NCBI GenBank assembly: GCA_046541875.1
Contig: JBKHCL010000005.1
Span: forward strand, 1-63,669
Direction: 5' to 3'
DNA length: 63,669 nt
Origin: Phycisphaerae bacterium
GTDB lineage: Bacteria; Planctomycetota; Phycisphaerae; SM23-33
The notes under the pieces are model-generated. The model saw only the letters and a list, made by a program, of their open reading frames with translations, was not told where the DNA came from and did not search any database. Shown one piece after another: positions 11,942 through 19,424 of this stretch (within the stretch, counting starts at the first letter, position 1; each line of letters begins with the position of its first letter). A program made the translations under genes and the position numbers.

Positions 11942-12053
11942 GGCGCCTTTCCGCTCACGTTGCGTGTCTTGACGGCGGAAGGGTATCAGACCGGCCAGGC
12001 CATTGCGACGATCAGGGAGGAAAATCAGCCTCAGCGAGAGAGCAGTGGAGCGC

Positions 12054-12440
12054 TCAGGGTTCCTGGGAGTATTGCGGCAGGAGGATGGTGTCCGGGGGCT
12101 TCATCTCGGTGTAGTCTTCGGGCTGGCCGGCGAGGACGTCGAGAATAGCGTCGGTGATGCGATTGCCCGTGCGGTCCAGCCATCGACCCGTGCGACGGGC
12201 AGAGGTGCGGGCGCTGTCCCAGTTTTCGCGTCGCCGGACCTCACCGGCGAAGCGGACGGTGAAGTCTTCCATGTCGTATCCCCAGGACTCGTGAACGCCG
12301 GAGAGCATTGCCTCACCGGCGGTGTCCGGGCCATCGGGAAACAGGCCACACCCGCCCGCGGAGACCGCCAGCGAGAGCAGGCCGCCGGCCATGACGATCC
12401 ACCAGCCCAGCGGGATGTTTTTGATCAGAGGCTGTCGCAT
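12054..12440 (-). CDS. Hypothetical lipoprotein
   Basis: Start MRQPLIK with GGAG RBS; hydrophobic stretch ending in lipobox-like AGGC. Confidence 0.6.
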   Translation of the reverse strand: MRQPLIKNIPLGWWIVMAGGLLSLAVSAGGCGLFPDGPDTAGEAMLSGVHESWGYDMEDFTVRFAGEVRRRENWDSARTSARRTGRWLDRTGNRITDAILDVLAGQPEDYTEMKPPDTILLPQYSQEP

Positions 12441-12533
12441 CTGCGATGTCTCCGGAGAAAAGAGGCTGGGGCATGTACCGACCCGCCATCGCCCACGGCA
12501 GCTCAGCCACATACCCCAAGCTCCGACAATCGC

Positions 12534-12562
12534 ATATCGGCGGGACGGGCGTGGAAATTCGG
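12534..12562 (-). promoter_or_regulatory. FliA/sigma28-like promoter candidate
   Basis: CCGAATTT-N13-GCCGATAT on the minus strand upstream of 12054..12440; same -35 octamer and spacing as the 37700 copy. Confidence 0.5.
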
Positions 12563-12576
12563 CCCAAATCGAAGGC

Positions 12577-12620
12577 AAAAACATCGGCCGACGAGGGCAG
12601 GTTCGCCCCCCTCGGCCGAT
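12577..12620 (-). terminator. Intrinsic terminator after the oxidoreductase gene
   Basis: ATCGGCCGA/TCGGCCGAT stem followed by GTTTTT on the minus strand. Confidence 0.55.
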
Positions 12621-12658
12621 CGGGTCCGGCGTCTTCGGTTGTTTGCAGGCAGGCGGCG

Positions 12659-13732
12659 TTACCGGATGTTCACGGGCTTGCCGGTCTGGGCGGACTTGTA
12701 GATTCCGTTGATGATTTTCTGGGTGACGATGGCCTCGGAGGCCGGCACGCGGACGGGCCTGCCCTTGAGGATGTTGTTGCAGAAGTCGGCGACTTCCTTC
12801 TCGTGGGAGGACCAGTTGCACTTCTTGCCGTCCAGGTCGAGCATGTAGATGTCGGTCGGCGTGCAGTCGGTCAGATGGCCGAACTGCTCGATCTGAACAG
12901 CCAGCGGCGAGAGTCCCGCCCCGCCCCTGGTGCCTACGATGTCCTGGCCCTGTCGGCCATGGGGGAGGTTCACATTGAACGAGCACTCGATGCTCATCGT
13001 CGCGCCGTTCTCGAAGCGGACATACGCGCTGGCGAAGTCTTCCACGGTGTAGGTTTTGTGGTCCCACGGGCCGAAGCTGCCGAAATGCCCGGGCTTGTTG
13101 CCGATGGTGCGGTAGGTCGCCCCGGTGACGCTCACCGGTGCGGGGCAGCCCATCATCCACCAGGTCAGGTCGATCTGGTGGACGCCGATGTCGATCAGCC
13201 CGCCGCCGCCCTGCTCTTCCATCCGGCCGAACACGCCCCAACTGGGCACGCCCCGACGGCGGATCGCCTGGCAGCGGGCGTAGTAGACCTCGCCCAGGAC
13301 GTTCTCGTCCACCAGGTTGCGGACGAACTCCGCCTCGGGGCGGTAGCGGTGCATCAGCCCGATCTGCAGTTGGAGGTCGTGCTCGTCGGCGGTCTTGACC
13401 ATGCGTTTTGCCTCGGCGACGGTCATGGACATGGGCTTCTCGCAGAGCACGTGCTTGCCGGCTTTGAGGGCGTCGGTGGTCTGCTTGGCGTGGTACTTGT
13501 TCGGCGTGCAGATGCTGACGGCCTGGACGTCGTCGAGCTTGAGCATCTTTTTATAGTCTGTGAAGCAGCGGTCCTCGGGCACGTCCCACTGCTCGGCCCG
13601 CTTCTTGAGGTTCTCGGTGCTCACGTCGGCCAGCGCGACGATCTCGCCCAGCCCGCTCTTGGTGTAGCCGTTGTAGTGGGCGTTGGATATGCCGCCCGTT
13701 CCGATGATCCCAACCTTCAACTTCCTGGCCAT
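12659..13732 (-). CDS. Gfo/Idh/MocA family oxidoreductase
   Basis: VGIIGTGGIS Rossmann motif, GKHVLCEKPM, GGGLIDIGVH; AGGAAGGA RBS. Confidence 0.93.
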   Translation of the reverse strand: MARKLKVGIIGTGGISNAHYNGYTKSGLGEIVALADVSTENLKKRAEQWDVPEDRCFTDYKKMLKLDDVQAVSICTPNKYHAKQTTDALKAGKHVLCEKPMSMTVAEAKRMVKTADEHDLQLQIGLMHRYRPEAEFVRNLVDENVLGEVYYARCQAIRRRGVPSWGVFGRMEEQGGGGLIDIGVHQIDLTWWMMGCPAPVSVTGATYRTIGNKPGHFGSFGPWDHKTYTVEDFASAYVRFENGATMSIECSFNVNLPHGRQGQDIVGTRGGAGLSPLAVQIEQFGHLTDCTPTDIYMLDLDGKKCNWSSHEKEVADFCNNILKGRPVRVPASEAIVTQKIINGIYKSAQTGKPVNIR

Positions 13733-14028
13733 GGGGTCCTGCTCTTCCTTCCTGTACCTCGGGCGATGCGTCTGTTGTCGACGCGATGTGAGAAAACGGG
13801 ACCGCCGAGGGAAATCCCGTCCCCGAGGACCTTTGACCCCGGGGGATATCTTCTGCCTCCGGGCCGGCAGGAAACGCGCTGCGGCCCGCCTGCCGCCGAA
13901 CGGATGGTCGGCCCGGACGGAAGGGAACTTGCCCAATCGATCTACCCCGCCGCTGCGGGGTGTGCAAGGGTTTTTGCGGCGACTGCCCGAGATTTGCGCG
14001 AAATTCGATGAATCCGACACTTTTGCCG

Positions 14029-14057
14029 TTGACGCCCCCGTCGGCCGGGCCTATAGA
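14029..14057 (+). promoter_or_regulatory. sigma70-type promoter for the ABC exporter leader
   Basis: TTGACG-N17-TATAGA. Confidence 0.7.
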
Positions 14058-14110
14058 AGAGGTCGTCGGGCAGAGCTTGGCCGACCCCACGTATGCAGGA
14101 GCAGGCATCC

Positions 14111-14197
14111 ATGCGAATCGCGACCTTCCCTATTATGACGGTGAACCCGCAGTCGGGCGCCCTGCGCCACGACGCGCGCCCGGAGGTAAGCGACTGA
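14111..14197 (+). CDS. Putative 28-aa leader peptide (MRIATFPIMTVNPQSGALRHDARPEVSD)
   Basis: AGGAG RBS 9 nt before the ATG; lies between promoter and terminator; below the ORF-track length cutoff. Confidence 0.6.
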   Translation: MRIATFPIMTVNPQSGALRHDARPEVSD

Positions 14198-14225
14198 TTC
14201 GCACGCAAACGCACCGCGAATATTC

Positions 14226-14259
14226 AGGCCCGCTTGCCGAACGGTGAGCGGGCCTTTTT
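14226..14259 (+). terminator. Intrinsic terminator (attenuator) in the 5' leader of the ABC exporter operon
   Basis: AGGCCCGCTTGCC-GAAC-GGTGAGCGGGCCT 13-bp stem (2 G-U pairs) followed by TTTT, about 95 nt before the first structural gene. Confidence 0.75.
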
Positions 14260-14355
14260 CGTGCTTCCCCTTCCGGGAGCTATCGGGGCCCGCAGGCGAG
14301 CGAGCAACAGAGCGACTGAGATGTACTCGAAGGCCCCCGGACGGGGAAAAGACTC

Positions 14356-16248
14356 ATGGCCAGACGAACACACACATTATGGACCTTCATGAAGGGGCAC
14401 CGGCGACGGTACCTCCTGGCGATCGGTGCGCTGATCGTGGCGACGCTGATTTCCTACATGCCGCCGCTGGTGATCGGGGCGGTGATCGACAACGTCATCG
14501 ACGGCAAACCCCTGCGCGGACCCGAATGGCTGACGGGCCTCTTCGATGCCATCGGCGGACGGACCGTTCTCGGCAGCAACCTCTGGATCGGCGGGCTGGC
14601 GATCGTCGCGCTGATGGCCGGCAGCGGCGTGTTCCTGTACGTCAAGGGCAGGTACGCCGCCCACGCGGCGGAGGGTATCTCGCGCAACATCCGCGAGACC
14701 GTCTACAACCACCTGCAGAACCTGCCCGTCTCGTTCCACGACGAGTCGGACACCGGCGACCTGGTGCAGCGATGCACCTCGGACATCGACACGATCCACG
14801 TGTTCCTCTCGCTGCAGGTGGTCGAGATCGGGCGCGGGGCTGCGCTGATCGCCACAGCCCTTCCGATCATGCTGTACCTCAACGTGTGGATGACCGGCGT
14901 GTCGATGGTGCTGATTCCGGTGATCCTGATTTTCACGGTGTGGTTCTTCATTCAGGTGCGCGGCGCGTTCAAGCGGTCCGACGAGGCCGAGGGCAAGATG
15001 ACCGCACGTCTGCAGGAGAATCTCACGGGCATCCGCGTGGTGCGGGCGTTCGCGCGTCAGGAGCACGAGTGCGCGCTGTTCGCCCGGCGCAACGCCACCT
15101 GGCGCGACCTGGACTATCGCCTGATCCGCCTGCTGGGGGTGTACTGGTCGCTCTCGGACCTGCTGTGCTTCGCCCAGCGCGGACTGGTGCTGTTCGCCGG
15201 GGCGTGGCTGGTCAGTCGCGGGGAGATGAAGATCGGTCAGATGGTCGTGTTCTTCATGTTCGTGGACCGGTTCCTCTGGCCGATCCGTCGGCTGGGGCGG
15301 GTGCTGACCGATCTGGGCAAAGCCACCGTCTCGATCGACCGGCTCGGGGAAATCCTCGAAAACGAGCCCGAGACCACCACCGAAGGCGACGTGCCGGAGC
15401 TGGACGTCGCCGGGGAGATCGAGTTCCGCAACGTGAGCTTCGCATTCACCCCGACGGGCATGGGCGTGCGAAAGAGCGACGACGACACCCCGCCGTCGGA
15501 CGGGTCGCCCGATCGTGAATCCGACGCGCCGCCGGTGCTGCGCGATGTCTCCTTCCACGTCGAGCCCGGGGCGACACTGGCGATTCTCGGGCCTTCCGGC
15601 TCGGGCAAGAGCACGATCGTGAACCTGCTGCTTCGGCTGTACAACTACGAGCAGGGCGAGATCCTGCTGGACGGGCGCGAGCTGCACGAGCTGGACGCCC
15701 AGGCGGTTCGCAACCAGATCGGCGTGATCCTCCAGGAGCCGTTCCTGTATTCCCGTTCGGTTCGGGAGAACGTCAAGCTGGGTCGATCGGCGGCCAGCGA
15801 CGAGGAAATGATCGAAGCGACCACCGCCGCCTGCGTGCACGACTCGATCCAGTCGTTCGAGGAAGGGTACGACACGAAGGTCGGCGAGCGCGGCGTGACG
15901 CTCTCGGGCGGGCAGCGGCAGCGGGTGGCGCTCGCGCGGGCCATCCTGAACGATCCGCCCATCCTCGTGCTGGACGACGCCCTCTCCGCCGTCGATACGC
16001 GGACCGAGAAGATGGTCCTCGACGCCCTGCAGGACCGCCGAGGTCGACATACCACGTTGATCATCGCACACCGCATCTCGACGCTGATGCACGCCGACGA
16101 GATCATCGTGCTCGAACATGGCCGCGTTGTGCAGACCGGTTCGCACGAGCAGTTGCTCAATCAGCCGGGCCTGTACCGCCGGCTGTGGGACATTCAGAAC
16201 TCCCTGGAGGCCGACCTCGATGAGGACCTCCAGGCCGCCAATACCTGA
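14356..16248 (+). CDS. ABC exporter subunit (TMD-NBD), degenerate-site partner
   Basis: 6-TM domain, Walker A GPSGSGKS, LSGGQ, Walker B ILVLDD (Asp at the catalytic Glu position), AHR. Confidence 0.93.
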   Translation: MARRTHTLWTFMKGHRRRYLLAIGALIVATLISYMPPLVIGAVIDNVIDGKPLRGPEWLTGLFDAIGGRTVLGSNLWIGGLAIVALMAGSGVFLYVKGRYAAHAAEGISRNIRETVYNHLQNLPVSFHDESDTGDLVQRCTSDIDTIHVFLSLQVVEIGRGAALIATALPIMLYLNVWMTGVSMVLIPVILIFTVWFFIQVRGAFKRSDEAEGKMTARLQENLTGIRVVRAFARQEHECALFARRNATWRDLDYRLIRLLGVYWSLSDLLCFAQRGLVLFAGAWLVSRGEMKIGQMVVFFMFVDRFLWPIRRLGRVLTDLGKATVSIDRLGEILENEPETTTEGDVPELDVAGEIEFRNVSFAFTPTGMGVRKSDDDTPPSDGSPDRESDAPPVLRDVSFHVEPGATLAILGPSGSGKSTIVNLLLRLYNYEQGEILLDGRELHELDAQAVRNQIGVILQEPFLYSRSVRENVKLGRSAASDEEMIEATTAACVHDSIQSFEEGYDTKVGERGVTLSGGQRQRVALARAILNDPPILVLDDALSAVDTRTEKMVLDALQDRRGRHTTLIIAHRISTLMHADEIIVLEHGRVVQTGSHEQLLNQPGLYRRLWDIQNSLEADLDEDLQAANT

Positions 16249-16316
16249 CCACCGCCGACCGTGGCGCGGGCCCGAAGACGCCCGCATCGCAACCGTCGGC
16301 CGGAAGGACAGCAAGC

Positions 16317-18176
16317 ATGACCCAAGCTGCACTCGAACACGAAACCGACCAGCTGCCCCAGGGGCTGGACCTGCACCTGTGGAAGCGGATCTATCAGCTG
16401 GCGATGCCCCACAGACGAACGCTGCTGGCCCTGGCCGGTACGTCCATGCTGCTGGCGGCCACCGACGCCGCCATGACGCTCGTGCCCAAGTACGTCATCG
16501 ACACCCTCCGGGGCGAAACGGCAACCAGCAGCTTCTGGCCATGGATGTGGATGTACATCGCCCTGGCGGTGATGTTCAGCGTGTGCGTGTGGGCGTTCAT
16601 CTCGTTCGCCGGGAAAATCGCCACGCACGTCAGCCACGACATCCGCAAGGCGGGCTTCGAGAAGCTTCAGGATTTGAGCTTCTCCTACTTCGACACCCGA
16701 CCGGCCGGTTGGCTGATGGCCCGGATGACCAGCGACTGCAACAAGCTCTCGCGCATTCTCGCGTGGGGCACGCTGGAGATGGTCTGGGGGACGTGCTTCA
16801 CGCTGGGGCTGATCACCATCATGCTCCTGGTGGACTGGCGTCTTGCGCTGATCGTACTGAGCGTGGTCCCGGTCCTGGCGTGGGTGAGCGTGGTCTTCCA
16901 GCGGAGGATTCTCACCTCCTCCCGCCGCGTGCGGAAGAACAACTCCGAGATCACCGCCAACTTCAATGAGTCCATCAGCGGCGTGCGGACCACCAAAACA
17001 CTGGTTCGCGAACGGGCGAACTTCTCGGAGTTCCAGCACCTGACCTCCACGATGGAGACCAACTCCATCCGCAACGCCCTGTATACGGCGGTGTACCTGC
17101 CGATCGTCATCACGCTTGGTGCAATCGGCACGGGGCTGGCATTGTGGCGAGGCGGGGTGGACGTGCTGGGCGGAGGAATGACGCTGGGCAGCCTGGTGCT
17201 GTTTATCAACTGCTCGGCCCAACTGGTGTTCCCGGTGCAGGAACTGGCGCAGATGTTCGCCGAGCTGCAGGCCGCCCGCGCCGCGGCCGAGCGCGTGCTG
17301 GAGCTGCTGGACACCGAACCGGACATCCAGGACTCCCCGCAGGTGCAGGCCGCCATCACCACACACGCCGACGCCACCCGGAACAACCCCGCCCTGGCCG
17401 AAGATGGCGGACCCGCGCAGATCAACACGGTCGAGTTCCGTCACGTCCGCTTCGAGTACGTCCCCGGCGAGCCGGTGCTGAATGACTTCAGTCTCCGCGT
17501 GGGAGAGGGCGAAACCATCGCGCTGGTCGGGCCCACCGGCGGCGGAAAGAGCACCATCGTCTCGCTGCTGTGCCGGTTCTACGAACCCACCGCCGGGGAG
17601 ATCCTCCTGGACGGGGTGGACTACCGCAAACGCAGCCTCCACTGGCTGCAGTCGAACCTGGGCATCGTGCTCCAGTCGCCGCACCTGTTCAGCGGGACGG
17701 TGCGGGAGAACATCGCGTACGGCCGACCGGACGCCACGGAAGACGAAATCCGCCGGGCGGCTGAGCTGGTCAACGCCCATGAGTTCATCGTCGAACTCGA
17801 GGACGGCTACGATACGGAAGTGGGCGAGGGCGGGGGCAAGCTCTCGACCGGTCAGAAGCAACTGATCTCGTTCGCCCGGGCGGTGCTGGCCGATCCGCAG
17901 ATTTTCGTAATGGACGAGGCGACCTCATCGGTGGACACCGAGACCGAGCAACAGATCCAGGCGGGCATCGCCGAGGTCCTCCGCGGGCGGATCAGCTTCG
18001 TGATCGCCCACCGCCTTTCGACCATCCGCAAGGCCGACCGGATCCTGGTGATTCAGGACGGACGAATCGCCGAGTGCGGCTCGCACCGGGATCTGATCGC
18101 CCAGCGCGGCGAGTACTACCAGCTCTACACCCACCAGTTCAGCCAGGAACGCCAAGCAGACGCCCTGGGCGACTAG
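16317..18176 (+). CDS. ABC exporter subunit (TMD-NBD), heterodimer partner
   Basis: 6-TM domain, GPTGGGKS, non-canonical signature LSTGQ, FVMDE, AHR; the pair fits an asymmetric heterodimeric exporter. Confidence 0.93.
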   Translation: MTQAALEHETDQLPQGLDLHLWKRIYQLAMPHRRTLLALAGTSMLLAATDAAMTLVPKYVIDTLRGETATSSFWPWMWMYIALAVMFSVCVWAFISFAGKIATHVSHDIRKAGFEKLQDLSFSYFDTRPAGWLMARMTSDCNKLSRILAWGTLEMVWGTCFTLGLITIMLLVDWRLALIVLSVVPVLAWVSVVFQRRILTSSRRVRKNNSEITANFNESISGVRTTKTLVRERANFSEFQHLTSTMETNSIRNALYTAVYLPIVITLGAIGTGLALWRGGVDVLGGGMTLGSLVLFINCSAQLVFPVQELAQMFAELQAARAAAERVLELLDTEPDIQDSPQVQAAITTHADATRNNPALAEDGGPAQINTVEFRHVRFEYVPGEPVLNDFSLRVGEGETIALVGPTGGGKSTIVSLLCRFYEPTAGEILLDGVDYRKRSLHWLQSNLGIVLQSPHLFSGTVRENIAYGRPDATEDEIRRAAELVNAHEFIVELEDGYDTEVGEGGGKLSTGQKQLISFARAVLADPQIFVMDEATSSVDTETEQQIQAGIAEVLRGRISFVIAHRLSTIRKADRILVIQDGRIAECGSHRDLIAQRGEYYQLYTHQFSQERQADALGD

Positions 18177-18536
18177 AACACTCTCTTCCAACCCCGGTGG
18201 GGTGGGCTGCGCAACCGCCGGCCTGACGCATCAACGTTTTGCATCGCCCCTTTTACGGCACGTTTGCTTGTGTGCAGGAACGATTTTCGGTGTATTCTCG
18301 TTGGAAGATTGGCTGATGTGCGAACAATTCGCCCGAGCGACTTGCCGCATGCCGCACCAGTAATTCGGAATATCGGTCAGAACATGATGTTGTTCTTGTG
18401 CAAAGTCTCTGATCTCGGGTAGAATGAAGCATACTGAGGTGGTCGACTGTTCTCCCCGGAGGCGTCGACCAACGGTTCCACATCCATATTTGAGGTCGAC
18501 GTCCCCGCTGTTGTGGACGTCGGAAAAGAGGCTGTT

Positions 18537-19424
18537 ATGTACAGACGACCCTCCCGTCGGGCGTTCACCCTGATCGAGTTACTGGTGGTGATCGCGATCA
18601 TTGCCCTGCTCGTGTCCATCCTCCTGCCGTCGCTGAAGCAGGCCAAGGAGCAGGCAAAATCCGCCATCTGCCGGACCAATCTCAAGGGGATCGGTACGAT
18701 CATGGCCGAGTACGAGAGCGTCTACAACGCGCTGCCCGGCAGCTACATCAAGCACTCCGACGGCGGTCGATCGCAATGGACACACGCCCTGGCGGACGCC
18801 GACTCGATATCGAGCGACCTGATGAAAGACCCCGACAAGGAAAACATGCTGCCCGAGTCGTCCGTGCTGATCTGCCCCTCCTCCGACGAGACCATCCTCA
18901 CGGACGGCTGGGCGGGAGAAGGCCCCAACCAGGACCGCTCCTACTACGCCCGCAAGGCACGCGAACGACGATTCATCCTCGCCACCGAGAAGTACGGCGC
19001 CGGCGGCGATACCGACATGTGGGTTCACACCTCCTACGGCGCCAACGGCGGCAACTGGGAATCACGCCCTTTCTACAACCGCTGGGCGATGCCCCATCCA
19101 TGGATCGATGAGAACGGCAGGCGGACTCAGCACGCCAGGCTGCACAAGTTCCAGATCGCCCCGTCGCAGGTCATCAGCATTTTCGATGGCTGGTTCAACC
19201 ATGTCTCGGGGGCCGACTTCTTCAGCCTGCGCCACATTCAGCAGACGCGCATCAATGTGCTCTGCGCCGACGGCCATACCGAGTCGCTTCAGAACGAGGA
19301 AGTCAGCGCCATGAGCCCCCGAGGCTTCTACGGCGATAACGAGTTCTACGACCAGTCGCTTAAGCCCGGACACTACTTCGTCGAACCGTCCAACGCCCCG
19401 AAGAGCTGGCCTAAAGACTGGTAA
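18537..19424 (+). CDS. Prepilin-type N-terminal cleavage/methylation protein with H-X9-DG motif (DUF1559-like)
   Basis: AFTLIELLVVIAIIALLVSILLPSL..AKEQA..C.TNLK and C-terminal RH-x-NVLCADGH. Confidence 0.9.
   Translation: MYRRPSRRAFTLIELLVVIAIIALLVSILLPSLKQAKEQAKSAICRTNLKGIGTIMAEYESVYNALPGSYIKHSDGGRSQWTHALADADSISSDLMKDPDKENMLPESSVLICPSSDETILTDGWAGEGPNQDRSYYARKARERRFILATEKYGAGGDTDMWVHTSYGANGGNWESRPFYNRWAMPHPWIDENGRRTQHARLHKFQIAPSQVISIFDGWFNHVSGADFFSLRHIQQTRINVLCADGHTESLQNEEVSAMSPRGFYGDNEFYDQSLKPGHYFVEPSNAPKSWPKDW

Follow-up and report, generated by a model that had tools for sequence, protein, structure and literature searches.

The locus described here raises the question of how the leader of a bacterial transcript might decide whether an ATP-binding cassette (ABC) exporter is made. 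The window, that is, the whole stretch of DNA that was analyzed, comprises 63,669 nucleotides of contig JBKHCL010000005.1 from a Phycisphaerae bacterium of the phylum Planctomycetota. Within it, a 623-base intergenic region between a divergent oxidoreductase gene and the first of two ABC genes holds the whole leader element that is the subject of this work. An original prediction had proposed that a ribosome finishing a short leader peptide here causes transcription to stop, while a ribosome held earlier allows read-through. Our analysis indicates that the 5′ leader of this two-gene operon, which encodes a heterodimeric exporter, probably carries a ribosome-dependent (leader-peptide) transcription attenuator. 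The element most likely serves as a general sensor of slowed or arrested translation.

Reading of the sequence recovered each of the elements that had been claimed, at its claimed place; all of them, like every leader feature described below, lie on the plus strand. A putative sigma-70-type promoter (14029 to 14057) consists of a −35 hexamer TTGACG (14029 to 14034), a 17-base spacer, and a −10 hexamer TATAGA (14052 to 14057). A Shine-Dalgarno (SD) sequence, AGGAG (14097 to 14101), is located 9 bases 5′ of the ATG of a leader open reading frame (ORF; 14111 to 14197), which comprises 28 sense codons and the stop codon TGA (14195 to 14197) and starts with Met-Arg-Ile. The ORF is followed by an intrinsic terminator (14226 to 14259) that is composed of a hairpin (14226 to 14255) and a U-tract (TTTTT, 14255 to 14259). 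Its stem has 13 pairs, 9 of them G-C and the others including two G-U pairs and the closing A-U pair, around a loop of 4 bases, and a consensus scan ranked it as the strongest of seven terminator-like sites between 12000 and 19000. The promoter is the weakest of these items, even though each of the four same-genus sequences (4/4) has kept both hexamers amid diverging flanks, and comparable −35/17/−10 arrangements were read by eye about 50 to 60 bases 5′ of leaders at other loci.

The stability of each predicted structure was compared with that of 200 dinucleotide-preserving shuffles. None of the shuffles was as stable as the terminator (−25.6 kcal/mol; z, −6.24; 0/200). The antiterminator is built from three pairings (14185 to 14192 with 14231 to 14238, 14194 to 14197 with 14224 to 14227, and 14198 to 14202 with 14216 to 14220), which form one hairpin in the predicted fold. 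This hairpin (14185 to 14238, compared as 14183 to 14240) reached −22.9 kcal/mol (z, −3.26), and a single shuffle of the 200 was as stable. As it shares positions 14226 to 14238 with the terminator, the two structures are mutually exclusive. Its 5′ arm, at 14185 to 14202, covers the last leader codons and the stop, as had been claimed. To that account we add a third structure, in which the start of the leader pairs with its end. The fold of 14108 to 14206 that contains this pairing has an energy of −39.3 kcal/mol (z, −2.13; 3/200 shuffles as stable); the duplex alone has −20.8 kcal/mol, and 7 of 500 shuffled versions of its 5′ strand did equally well.

The three structures together give the classical (trp-like) arrangement of four regions, with 1:2 and 3:4 on one side and 2:3 on the other. 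Region 1 (14112 to 14128), at the leader start, is the anti-antiterminator arm and pairs with region 2. Region 2 (14182 to 14203) comprises the last leader codons, the stop, and 6 further bases; it pairs either with region 1 or, as the antiterminator 5′ arm, with region 3. Region 3 (14216 to 14238) is the antiterminator 3′ arm and from 14226 onward overlaps the terminator 5′ arm, while region 4 (14243 to 14255), the terminator 3′ arm, pairs with region 3. Transcription would start at about position 14064. Without a ribosome on the leader, 1:2 and 3:4 would both pair and the RNA would end at the U-tract (14255 to 14259). A ribosome that keeps pace to the last codons or the stop would cover region 2, so that 3:4 could again pair and cause termination. 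A ribosome held within about the first 16 codons, the start codon included, would mask region 1 and leave region 2 free to capture region 3 before region 4 is made; no terminator would then form, and the exporter genes would be transcribed. Slowed or arrested translation, as caused, for example, by ribosome-targeting compounds, would in this way induce the exporter.

The dependence on ribosome position was modeled by masking 30 bases around the P site in a transcript cut at 14242, i.e., before the terminator 3′ arm exists. The minimum-energy fold of the transcript ending at this position was the antiterminator. In the masked folds, the antiterminator probability was 0.73 to 0.75 with the P site on codons 1 to 16, 0.59 on codon 18, 0.19 on codon 20, and no more than 0.02 from codon 22 to the stop. 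The value for free RNA without a ribosome was only 0.45, because region 1 competes for region 2. Folding under constraints, part of a check that was proposed originally, kept the antiterminator with a ribosome on codons 1 to 16 and lost it from codon 20 on. In this model, an early-held ribosome favors read-through, and an absent or finished ribosome favors termination. Applied to other loci, the mask model gave a sequestration of the terminator arm that was higher by at least 0.10 for a start-stalled than for a stop-positioned ribosome at 13 of 17 loci; the effect was opposite at one (L010), and three were ties. When the spacers were shuffled, 8 of the 17 loci passed at 5 or fewer of 100 shuffles.

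The leader is conserved within the genus in a way that fits this arrangement. Three same-genus genomes were compared, G002, G003, and G001, whose first ABC protein (ABC-A) is 97, 92, and 74% identical to that of the window; all carry the orthologous operon. Promoter hexamers, SD sequence, ATG, TGA, and terminator aligned in all three (3/3), although much of the intergenic region could not be aligned for the most distant genome. In G002 and G003, codons 1 to 4, codons 19 to 28 with the stop, the spacer, and the terminator were invariant or differed by one base. The codon changes within codons 5 to 18, by contrast, were mostly nonsynonymous (1/1 in G002 and 5/7 in G003). Region 2 was invariant in 3/3 close genomes, and 24 of 33 positions were kept in G001. 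The leader of G001 has 26 codons, a 6-nucleotide in-frame difference from the window, and the base of its terminator stem carries a compensatory change from GG/CC to AA/UU. G001 forms an antiterminator of its own that overlaps the stop (−27.7 kcal/mol; z, −3.17; 10/12 arm bases paired). A conserved frame and conserved RNA arms around a drifting peptide indicate selection on the open frame and the RNA, not on the peptide. Three metatranscriptome runs and three runs of unrecorded kind each contained 10 to 19% of the search words, and four of these runs, compared with the window, yielded only assembled contigs of relatives (90 to 99% alike). One RNA-library contig spans 14011 to 14459 and thus crosses the terminator; it is uninformative on starts, ends, and levels, and as it begins upstream of the −35 hexamer, it may stem from DNA or from another transcript. 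One relative's contig matches the leader from codon 8 (window position 14132) and has different bases before it, with the same first three codons, and represents a further variant of the variable leader middle.

The peptide itself carries no visible signal. Any given residue appears at most 3 times among the 28, there is no enrichment and no tandem repeat of any one codon, which agrees with the earlier statement that no amino acid is enriched, and codon usage is ordinary (24th percentile of 309 windows). The absence of such a signal makes a general translation sensor the most likely function, and the drift of the peptide together with the ordinary codon usage likewise favors generic sensing. 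Tuning of the leader by rare codons was considered and rejected, since rare codons occur only at positions 7, 8, and 26 and lack conservation in G003. Paralogous leaders were not found in the genome; an nhmmer profile of the leader matched itself only (E, 1e-53), the next match having an E value of at least 0.3.

To see how far the arrangement extends, orthologous loci were collected from 40 relatives, giving 19 loci with the window included. At 10 of these, from six genera and two families, an SD-preceded short ORF starting with Met-Arg-Ile or close to it is followed by terminator hairpins; an SD-like motif lies 7 to 9 bases 5′ of the leader start at orthologous loci. At 11/19 loci, one of them with a weak form, a terminator with a T-run lay no farther than 160 bases from the ABC start. 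A wider search with an alignment of seven ABC-A proteins returned 80 loci from many phyla, and a metagenome scan contributed 14 more, all of which were 37 to 51% identical and none near the genus. Among the 107 loci with at least 250 bases of upstream sequence, we scored terminators (−11 kcal/mol or better, at least 4 T, at most 300 bases upstream). They occurred in sense orientation at 43/107 loci versus 6/107 in antisense, and a terminator combined with an SD-preceded ORF of 8 to 50 codons ending at most 110 bases before it occurred at 34/107 versus 0/107. Three of the 107 loci are near-duplicates; without these and L002, 39/103 keep a sense terminator. Some sense terminators may belong to upstream genes, for example, to the tRNA in L073. 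A filter designed for such cases flagged 10/39 loci, the window among them, and was discarded as unreliable, as long spurious frames abound in G+C-rich DNA. L073 and L009 (G018) have a tRNA gene and no leader ORF directly 5′ of the exporter, and the sense terminator of L073 is that of the tRNA.

Carriers of the layout include Phycisphaerae, Opitutaceae, Pseudomonadales, and Clostridia. At the Nannocystaceae locus L084 a similar short ORF and terminator were recognized by eye, and the automated SD-ORF screen made no call. The leaders of other lineages have no common peptide motif beyond the first residues. What recurs is the pairing: the terminator 5′ arm can pair with the stop-codon region at nine loci, with 10/13 arm bases paired in L001, L003, and L010, 10/12 in L004, 10/11 in L015, 8/9 in L006, 8/10 in L039, 13/14 in L049, and 7/10 in L076. 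The stop-overlapping antiterminator was more stable than expected in L001 (z, −3.1), L003 (−2.7), L004 (−3.2), L039 (−2.8), and L049 (−3.3) and not significantly so in L010, L015, L006, and L076. An extra hairpin relays the same choice in L008, L013, L054, and L078. At 10 of 22 loci, the duplex of start region and stop region was better than shuffled region 1 sequences at the 5% level; chance would give about 1. The Arg codon of the leader is CGA in the window and CGG in L015, and the partner base after the stop differs to match (A-U to G-C, read by eye). An RNA constraint thus seems to account, at least in part, for the recurrence of the Met-Arg-Ile start.

Several further features were seen at these loci. 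Tandem hairpins occur in the planctomycete leaders of L015, L006, L008, L013, L039, and L049; the leading hairpin frequently shows a poor U-tract and is able to pair, through its 3′ arm, with the 5′ arm of the hairpin that follows, as in a relay switch. The clostridial loci L042, L046, L056, and L070 have SD-preceded ORFs of 20 to 45 codons 5′ of homologous exporters, and two tandem terminators with near-identical stems are present in L042, L046, L056, and L065. L042 also has an 8-base palindrome at the leader start and again near its end, where it is complementary to the 5′ arm and loop of the first terminator; by eye, this is the logic of the window, with the start pairing to the end and the end to the terminator. 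Two acidobacterial loci, L036 and L072, have a 25-codon Met-Arg-Ile leader followed by a G+C-rich hairpin without a U-tract. Either this hairpin is not an intrinsic terminator, or termination proceeds without a U-tract in those organisms. In the window, an SD-like GGAGG (14183 to 14187), kept in all four same-genus sequences, is located 7 bases 5′ of the leader stop and pairs with CCUUCC in region 1; G-runs directly 5′ of the leader stop are seen in L010, L015, and L006. The GGAGG might also slow a terminating ribosome.

A number of results weigh against a ribosome-dependent attenuator at this locus. In equilibrium folds with ribosome masks, the terminator won in every ribosome state with a probability of 0.99; the switch must therefore be kinetic, which folding programs cannot show. 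The arm sequestration of the window itself was unexceptional, as 13 of 100 spacer shuffles were as high; G+C-rich RNA pairs readily. A strict consensus scan of 12000 to 19000 called no promoter-like site at all, the leader promoter included; that promoter was missed because its −10 hexamer ends in A instead of T. The ordinary codon usage is unlike the rare-codon tuning reported for the bmrB leader (discussed below), and 9 of the 19 orthologous loci lack such a leader. The alignment of orthologous leaders, also proposed originally as a check, bore out the conservation of frame, SD sequence, start, and stop within the genus and the presence of a leader at 10 of the 19 loci. Column-wise covariation of the antiterminator could not be counted in the 10-sequence cross-genus alignment, because the paired segments shift register between lineages, and only G001 varies within the genus. 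As for terminator usage, 37 of 81 hairpin-plus-T-run sites of −22 kcal/mol or stronger lay no more than 160 bases 3′ of the end of a long open frame on the same strand, compared to 15% for random positions, so the organism appears to use terminators of this kind; however, the opposite-strand control was just as high (38/81), and the test shows no strand specificity. The transcription start, translation of the leader, a 3′ end at 14259, the dependence on ribosome position, and induction are all predictions. Taken with these reservations, the claim that a finishing ribosome leads to termination and an early-held one to read-through is supported by the masked folds, the stability statistics, the conservation within the genus, and the recurrence of the layout.

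Other explanations would account for parts of these data. The leader might be a drug-specific arrest-peptide sensor of the erm, cat, or msr type, in which the nascent N-terminal residues act with a single class of ribosome-bound compound to arrest the ribosome early, at a defined codon; such a sensor would be a special case of an attenuator. Met-Arg-Ile does recur, encoded by different Arg and Ile codons, in leaders of Planctomycetota and Acidobacteriota, and Arg-x-Arg, known as a macrolide arrest motif, is present near the N terminus of several leaders. Read-through in our model would moreover require a stall in the first part of the ORF, where such a peptide would act. The start region, however, pairs with the stop region at most loci, and codon changes are matched on the partner strand, so an RNA constraint explains much of the N-terminal conservation. 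The remaining residues drift freely even within the genus, and leaders of other lineages share no motif. We consider a dedicated arrest peptide unlikely on these grounds, and drug sensing by the leader is an inference.

It is less probable still that the leader is a riboswitch or protein-binding attenuator, in which the short ORF is incidental and the ribosome is uninvolved. The parts that are invariant in the genus are indeed RNA elements and not the peptide, a stable G+C-rich hairpin inside the leader ORF (14140 to 14180), seen in the predicted folds, has no assigned role, and at 65% G+C, chance alone often yields open frames of 28 codons. A ligand pocket should be conserved, whereas the sequence between the arms is not conserved across genera, and the Rfam 15 covariance models, run over 13500 to 14600, gave only seven matches with E values up to 10, all far below their gathering scores and none credible (top score, Cupriavidus-1, with 21.8 bits versus 45.5; lowest E value, 0.086 for Bp2_287, with 19.1 bits versus 70). 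An incidental ORF is also difficult to reconcile with the preservation of SD sequence, ATG, and frame, including the in-frame difference in G001, with the strand bias of SD-preceded ORFs just before a terminator, and with a stop codon in or beside the antiterminator arm in several lineages. Promoter, ORF, and strong terminator could in principle constitute a complete transcription unit of about 195 bases, i.e., an independent small gene or small RNA with a constitutive terminator, the exporter being expressed from elsewhere or by unregulated leak-through. This is the least probable of the explanations, and quite improbable in itself: the peptide is not conserved and is single copy in the genome, the stretch from 14260 to 14355 has no −35-like hexamer containing TTG and no promoter was called there, and the unit is always directly 5′ of, and co-oriented with, this exporter family. 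A competing hairpin on the terminator arm that is stable above chance would be useless in a plain terminator.

The ribosome-dependent attenuator thus preferred has well-known relatives. Leader-peptide attenuators that induce exporters have been worked out mainly in Firmicutes. The short ORFs in the leaders of ABC-F and rRNA methylase resistance genes (vmlR, msrD, and erm) sense ribosome stalling, several of them by transcription attenuation; those genes protect or modify the ribosome, and many of their leaders have defined arrest peptides, whereas the genes here encode an exporter. In translational attenuation of the erm/cat type, the ribosome-binding site is masked, while the hairpin here has a U-tract, and its end at 14255 leaves 100 bases to the ABC start; a predicted hairpin at 14264 to 14348 that may cover the ABC ribosome-binding site is not linked to the leader. 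A Gram-negative example is the PA5471.1 leader 5′ of armZ in Pseudomonas aeruginosa, where stalling relieves termination and induces an efflux pump; it controls the regulator of a resistance-nodulation-division (RND) pump and not an ABC exporter directly. Attenuators of the trpL, hisL, and pheL types use the same logic of four regions (1:2 and 3:4 versus 2:3) with a translated leader and a decisive ribosome position. These types differ from the present case in having a run of regulatory codons in front of a biosynthetic operon, where we find no residue above 3/28 and exporter genes.

By analogy, the proposed attenuation mechanism is already known from Bacillus, and the bmrB leader of bmrCD is its nearest worked example. 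In the report by Reilman et al. (2014; PMC4191407), in which the trpL, hisL, and pheL types are also discussed, the bmrB leader of Bacillus subtilis is described as controlling bmrCD through a terminator, an antiterminator, and an anti-antiterminator. Lincomycin, chloramphenicol, and erythromycin induce it, induction is lost once ErmC methylates the ribosome, and rare codons tune the response (PMC4191407). As far as that account goes, both systems place a promoter-proximal leader (with translation predicted here) and the same three structures 5′ of a heterodimeric exporter with one degenerate ATP site, and they share the logic by which efficient leader translation gives termination and slowed translation gives read-through, which in our case is modeled. 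Judged by the same account, the differences concern leader length (28 codons here and 53 in bmrB), codon usage (ordinary here), and the terminator, which in bmrB lies inside the ORF (PMC4191407) and here 30 bases 3′ of the stop, with only the antiterminator 5′ arm in the ORF. BmrC and BmrD are no more than distant relatives of the exporter proteins studied here (phmmer, 1e-80 and 1e-92, below TM287/288), and the phylum differs as well.

Two further precedents concern exporters of the ABC type. In Streptococcus pneumoniae, expression of the heterodimeric ABC exporter PatAB is limited, according to PMC4319486, by a terminator hairpin within the 5′ leader; as presented there, patAB resembles the present locus in having a leader terminator before a heterodimeric ABC exporter and differs in belonging to a Firmicute. 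Naville and Gautheret (2010; PMC2965389) predicted terminator/antiterminator leaders in front of ABC transporter operons, among them one for multidrug export in lactobacilli. In the passages on these “ABC-leaders,” they are described as possible ligand-sensing elements (PMC2965389), unlike the ribosome sensing proposed here, and the string “Planctomycet” does not occur in the text of that paper. The original prediction had stated that no such riboregulator is known to have been described in Planctomycetota, and a literature search limited to open-access papers found none either.

The leader precedes two adjacent genes on the plus strand. ABC half-transporter A (14356 to 16248) has a transmembrane domain and an ATPase domain (Pfam ABC_membrane, 4e-48; ABC_tran, 3e-34), and half-transporter B (16317 to 18176) was assigned by Pfam, by motif reading, and by Protein Data Bank (PDB) matches to TM288, TmrA, and YheH/BmrD. 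In the motif reading, Asp replaces the catalytic Glu after Walker B in chain A, whose signature LSGGQ is canonical, while chain B has the canonical Walker B Glu and no canonical signature motif was found in it. Heterodimeric exporters with one degenerate ATP site typically show this combination of Asp in one chain and no canonical signature in the other, and the two proteins are accordingly classed, by their motifs, as an exporter of this kind. The closest solved bacterial heterodimers among the PDB matches are TM287/288, TmrAB, BmrCD (YheI/YheH), and the ABC transporter entry 7ocy. No NCBIfam model matched the exporter at its cutoff, the top one being MsbA (394.5 bits versus 602).

Other features of the locus lie around the element. 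A 5′-terminal stem-loop of the putative transcript (14065 to 14085) appeared in all predicted folds. The predicted long imperfect hairpin between terminator and ABC start (14264 to 14348) joins a C-rich stretch just 3′ of the terminator with a G-rich stretch directly 5′ of the ABC-A start codon; G002 and G003 retain both runs, which are less evident in G001. In the folding model, this hairpin may hide the ribosome-binding site of ABC-A and so bring in a translational layer of control. Another hairpin followed by a T-run (13931 to 13971, plus strand; −17.9 kcal/mol) is located about 60 bases 5′ of the −35 hexamer, in a stretch with partial conservation across the four same-genus sequences; this hairpin might serve to insulate the leader promoter, or it might be part of the control region of the divergent gene. 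That gene (12659 to 13732, minus strand, with an in-frame ATG at 13732) encodes a Gfo/Idh/MocA-family oxidoreductase (Pfam GFO_IDH_MocA, E, 7e-31, plus C-terminal domains) and lies outside the element. A gene 3′ of the exporter (18513 to 19424, plus strand) encodes a protein in which a prepilin-type N-terminal methylation motif is combined with a DUF1559 domain, as is typical of Planctomycetota.

To our knowledge, few regulatory RNAs have been characterized in Planctomycetota. The leader described here is a well-supported candidate for an attenuator of this type in the phylum, and the same layout is found at this exporter family in several phyla. If the assignment is correct, such exporters would be inducible responses to translation inhibitors in environmental bacteria, the leader would constitute a compact natural ribosome-stalling sensor for G+C-rich hosts, and the apparent conservation of a leader peptide, here Met-Arg-Ile, could largely stem from RNA pairing. 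The most interesting lead is that the layout extends over several phyla. It was seen in Planctomycetota, Verrucomicrobiota, Gammaproteobacteria, and Clostridia, with hairpins lacking a U-tract in Acidobacteriota and one locus in Myxococcota recognized by eye. More tentatively, and with doubt prevailing, the element of the window might be one case of an old and widespread coupling, in which one exporter subfamily is placed behind a three-state ribosome sensor (none, stalled, or finished). In such a sensor, the start of a short leader ORF would pair with its stop region, and a copy of the terminator 3′ arm would be embedded at the stop. If this broader view held, the native role of the exporter subfamily across bacteria would be a response to arrested translation, and bmrBCD would be only its best-known example.

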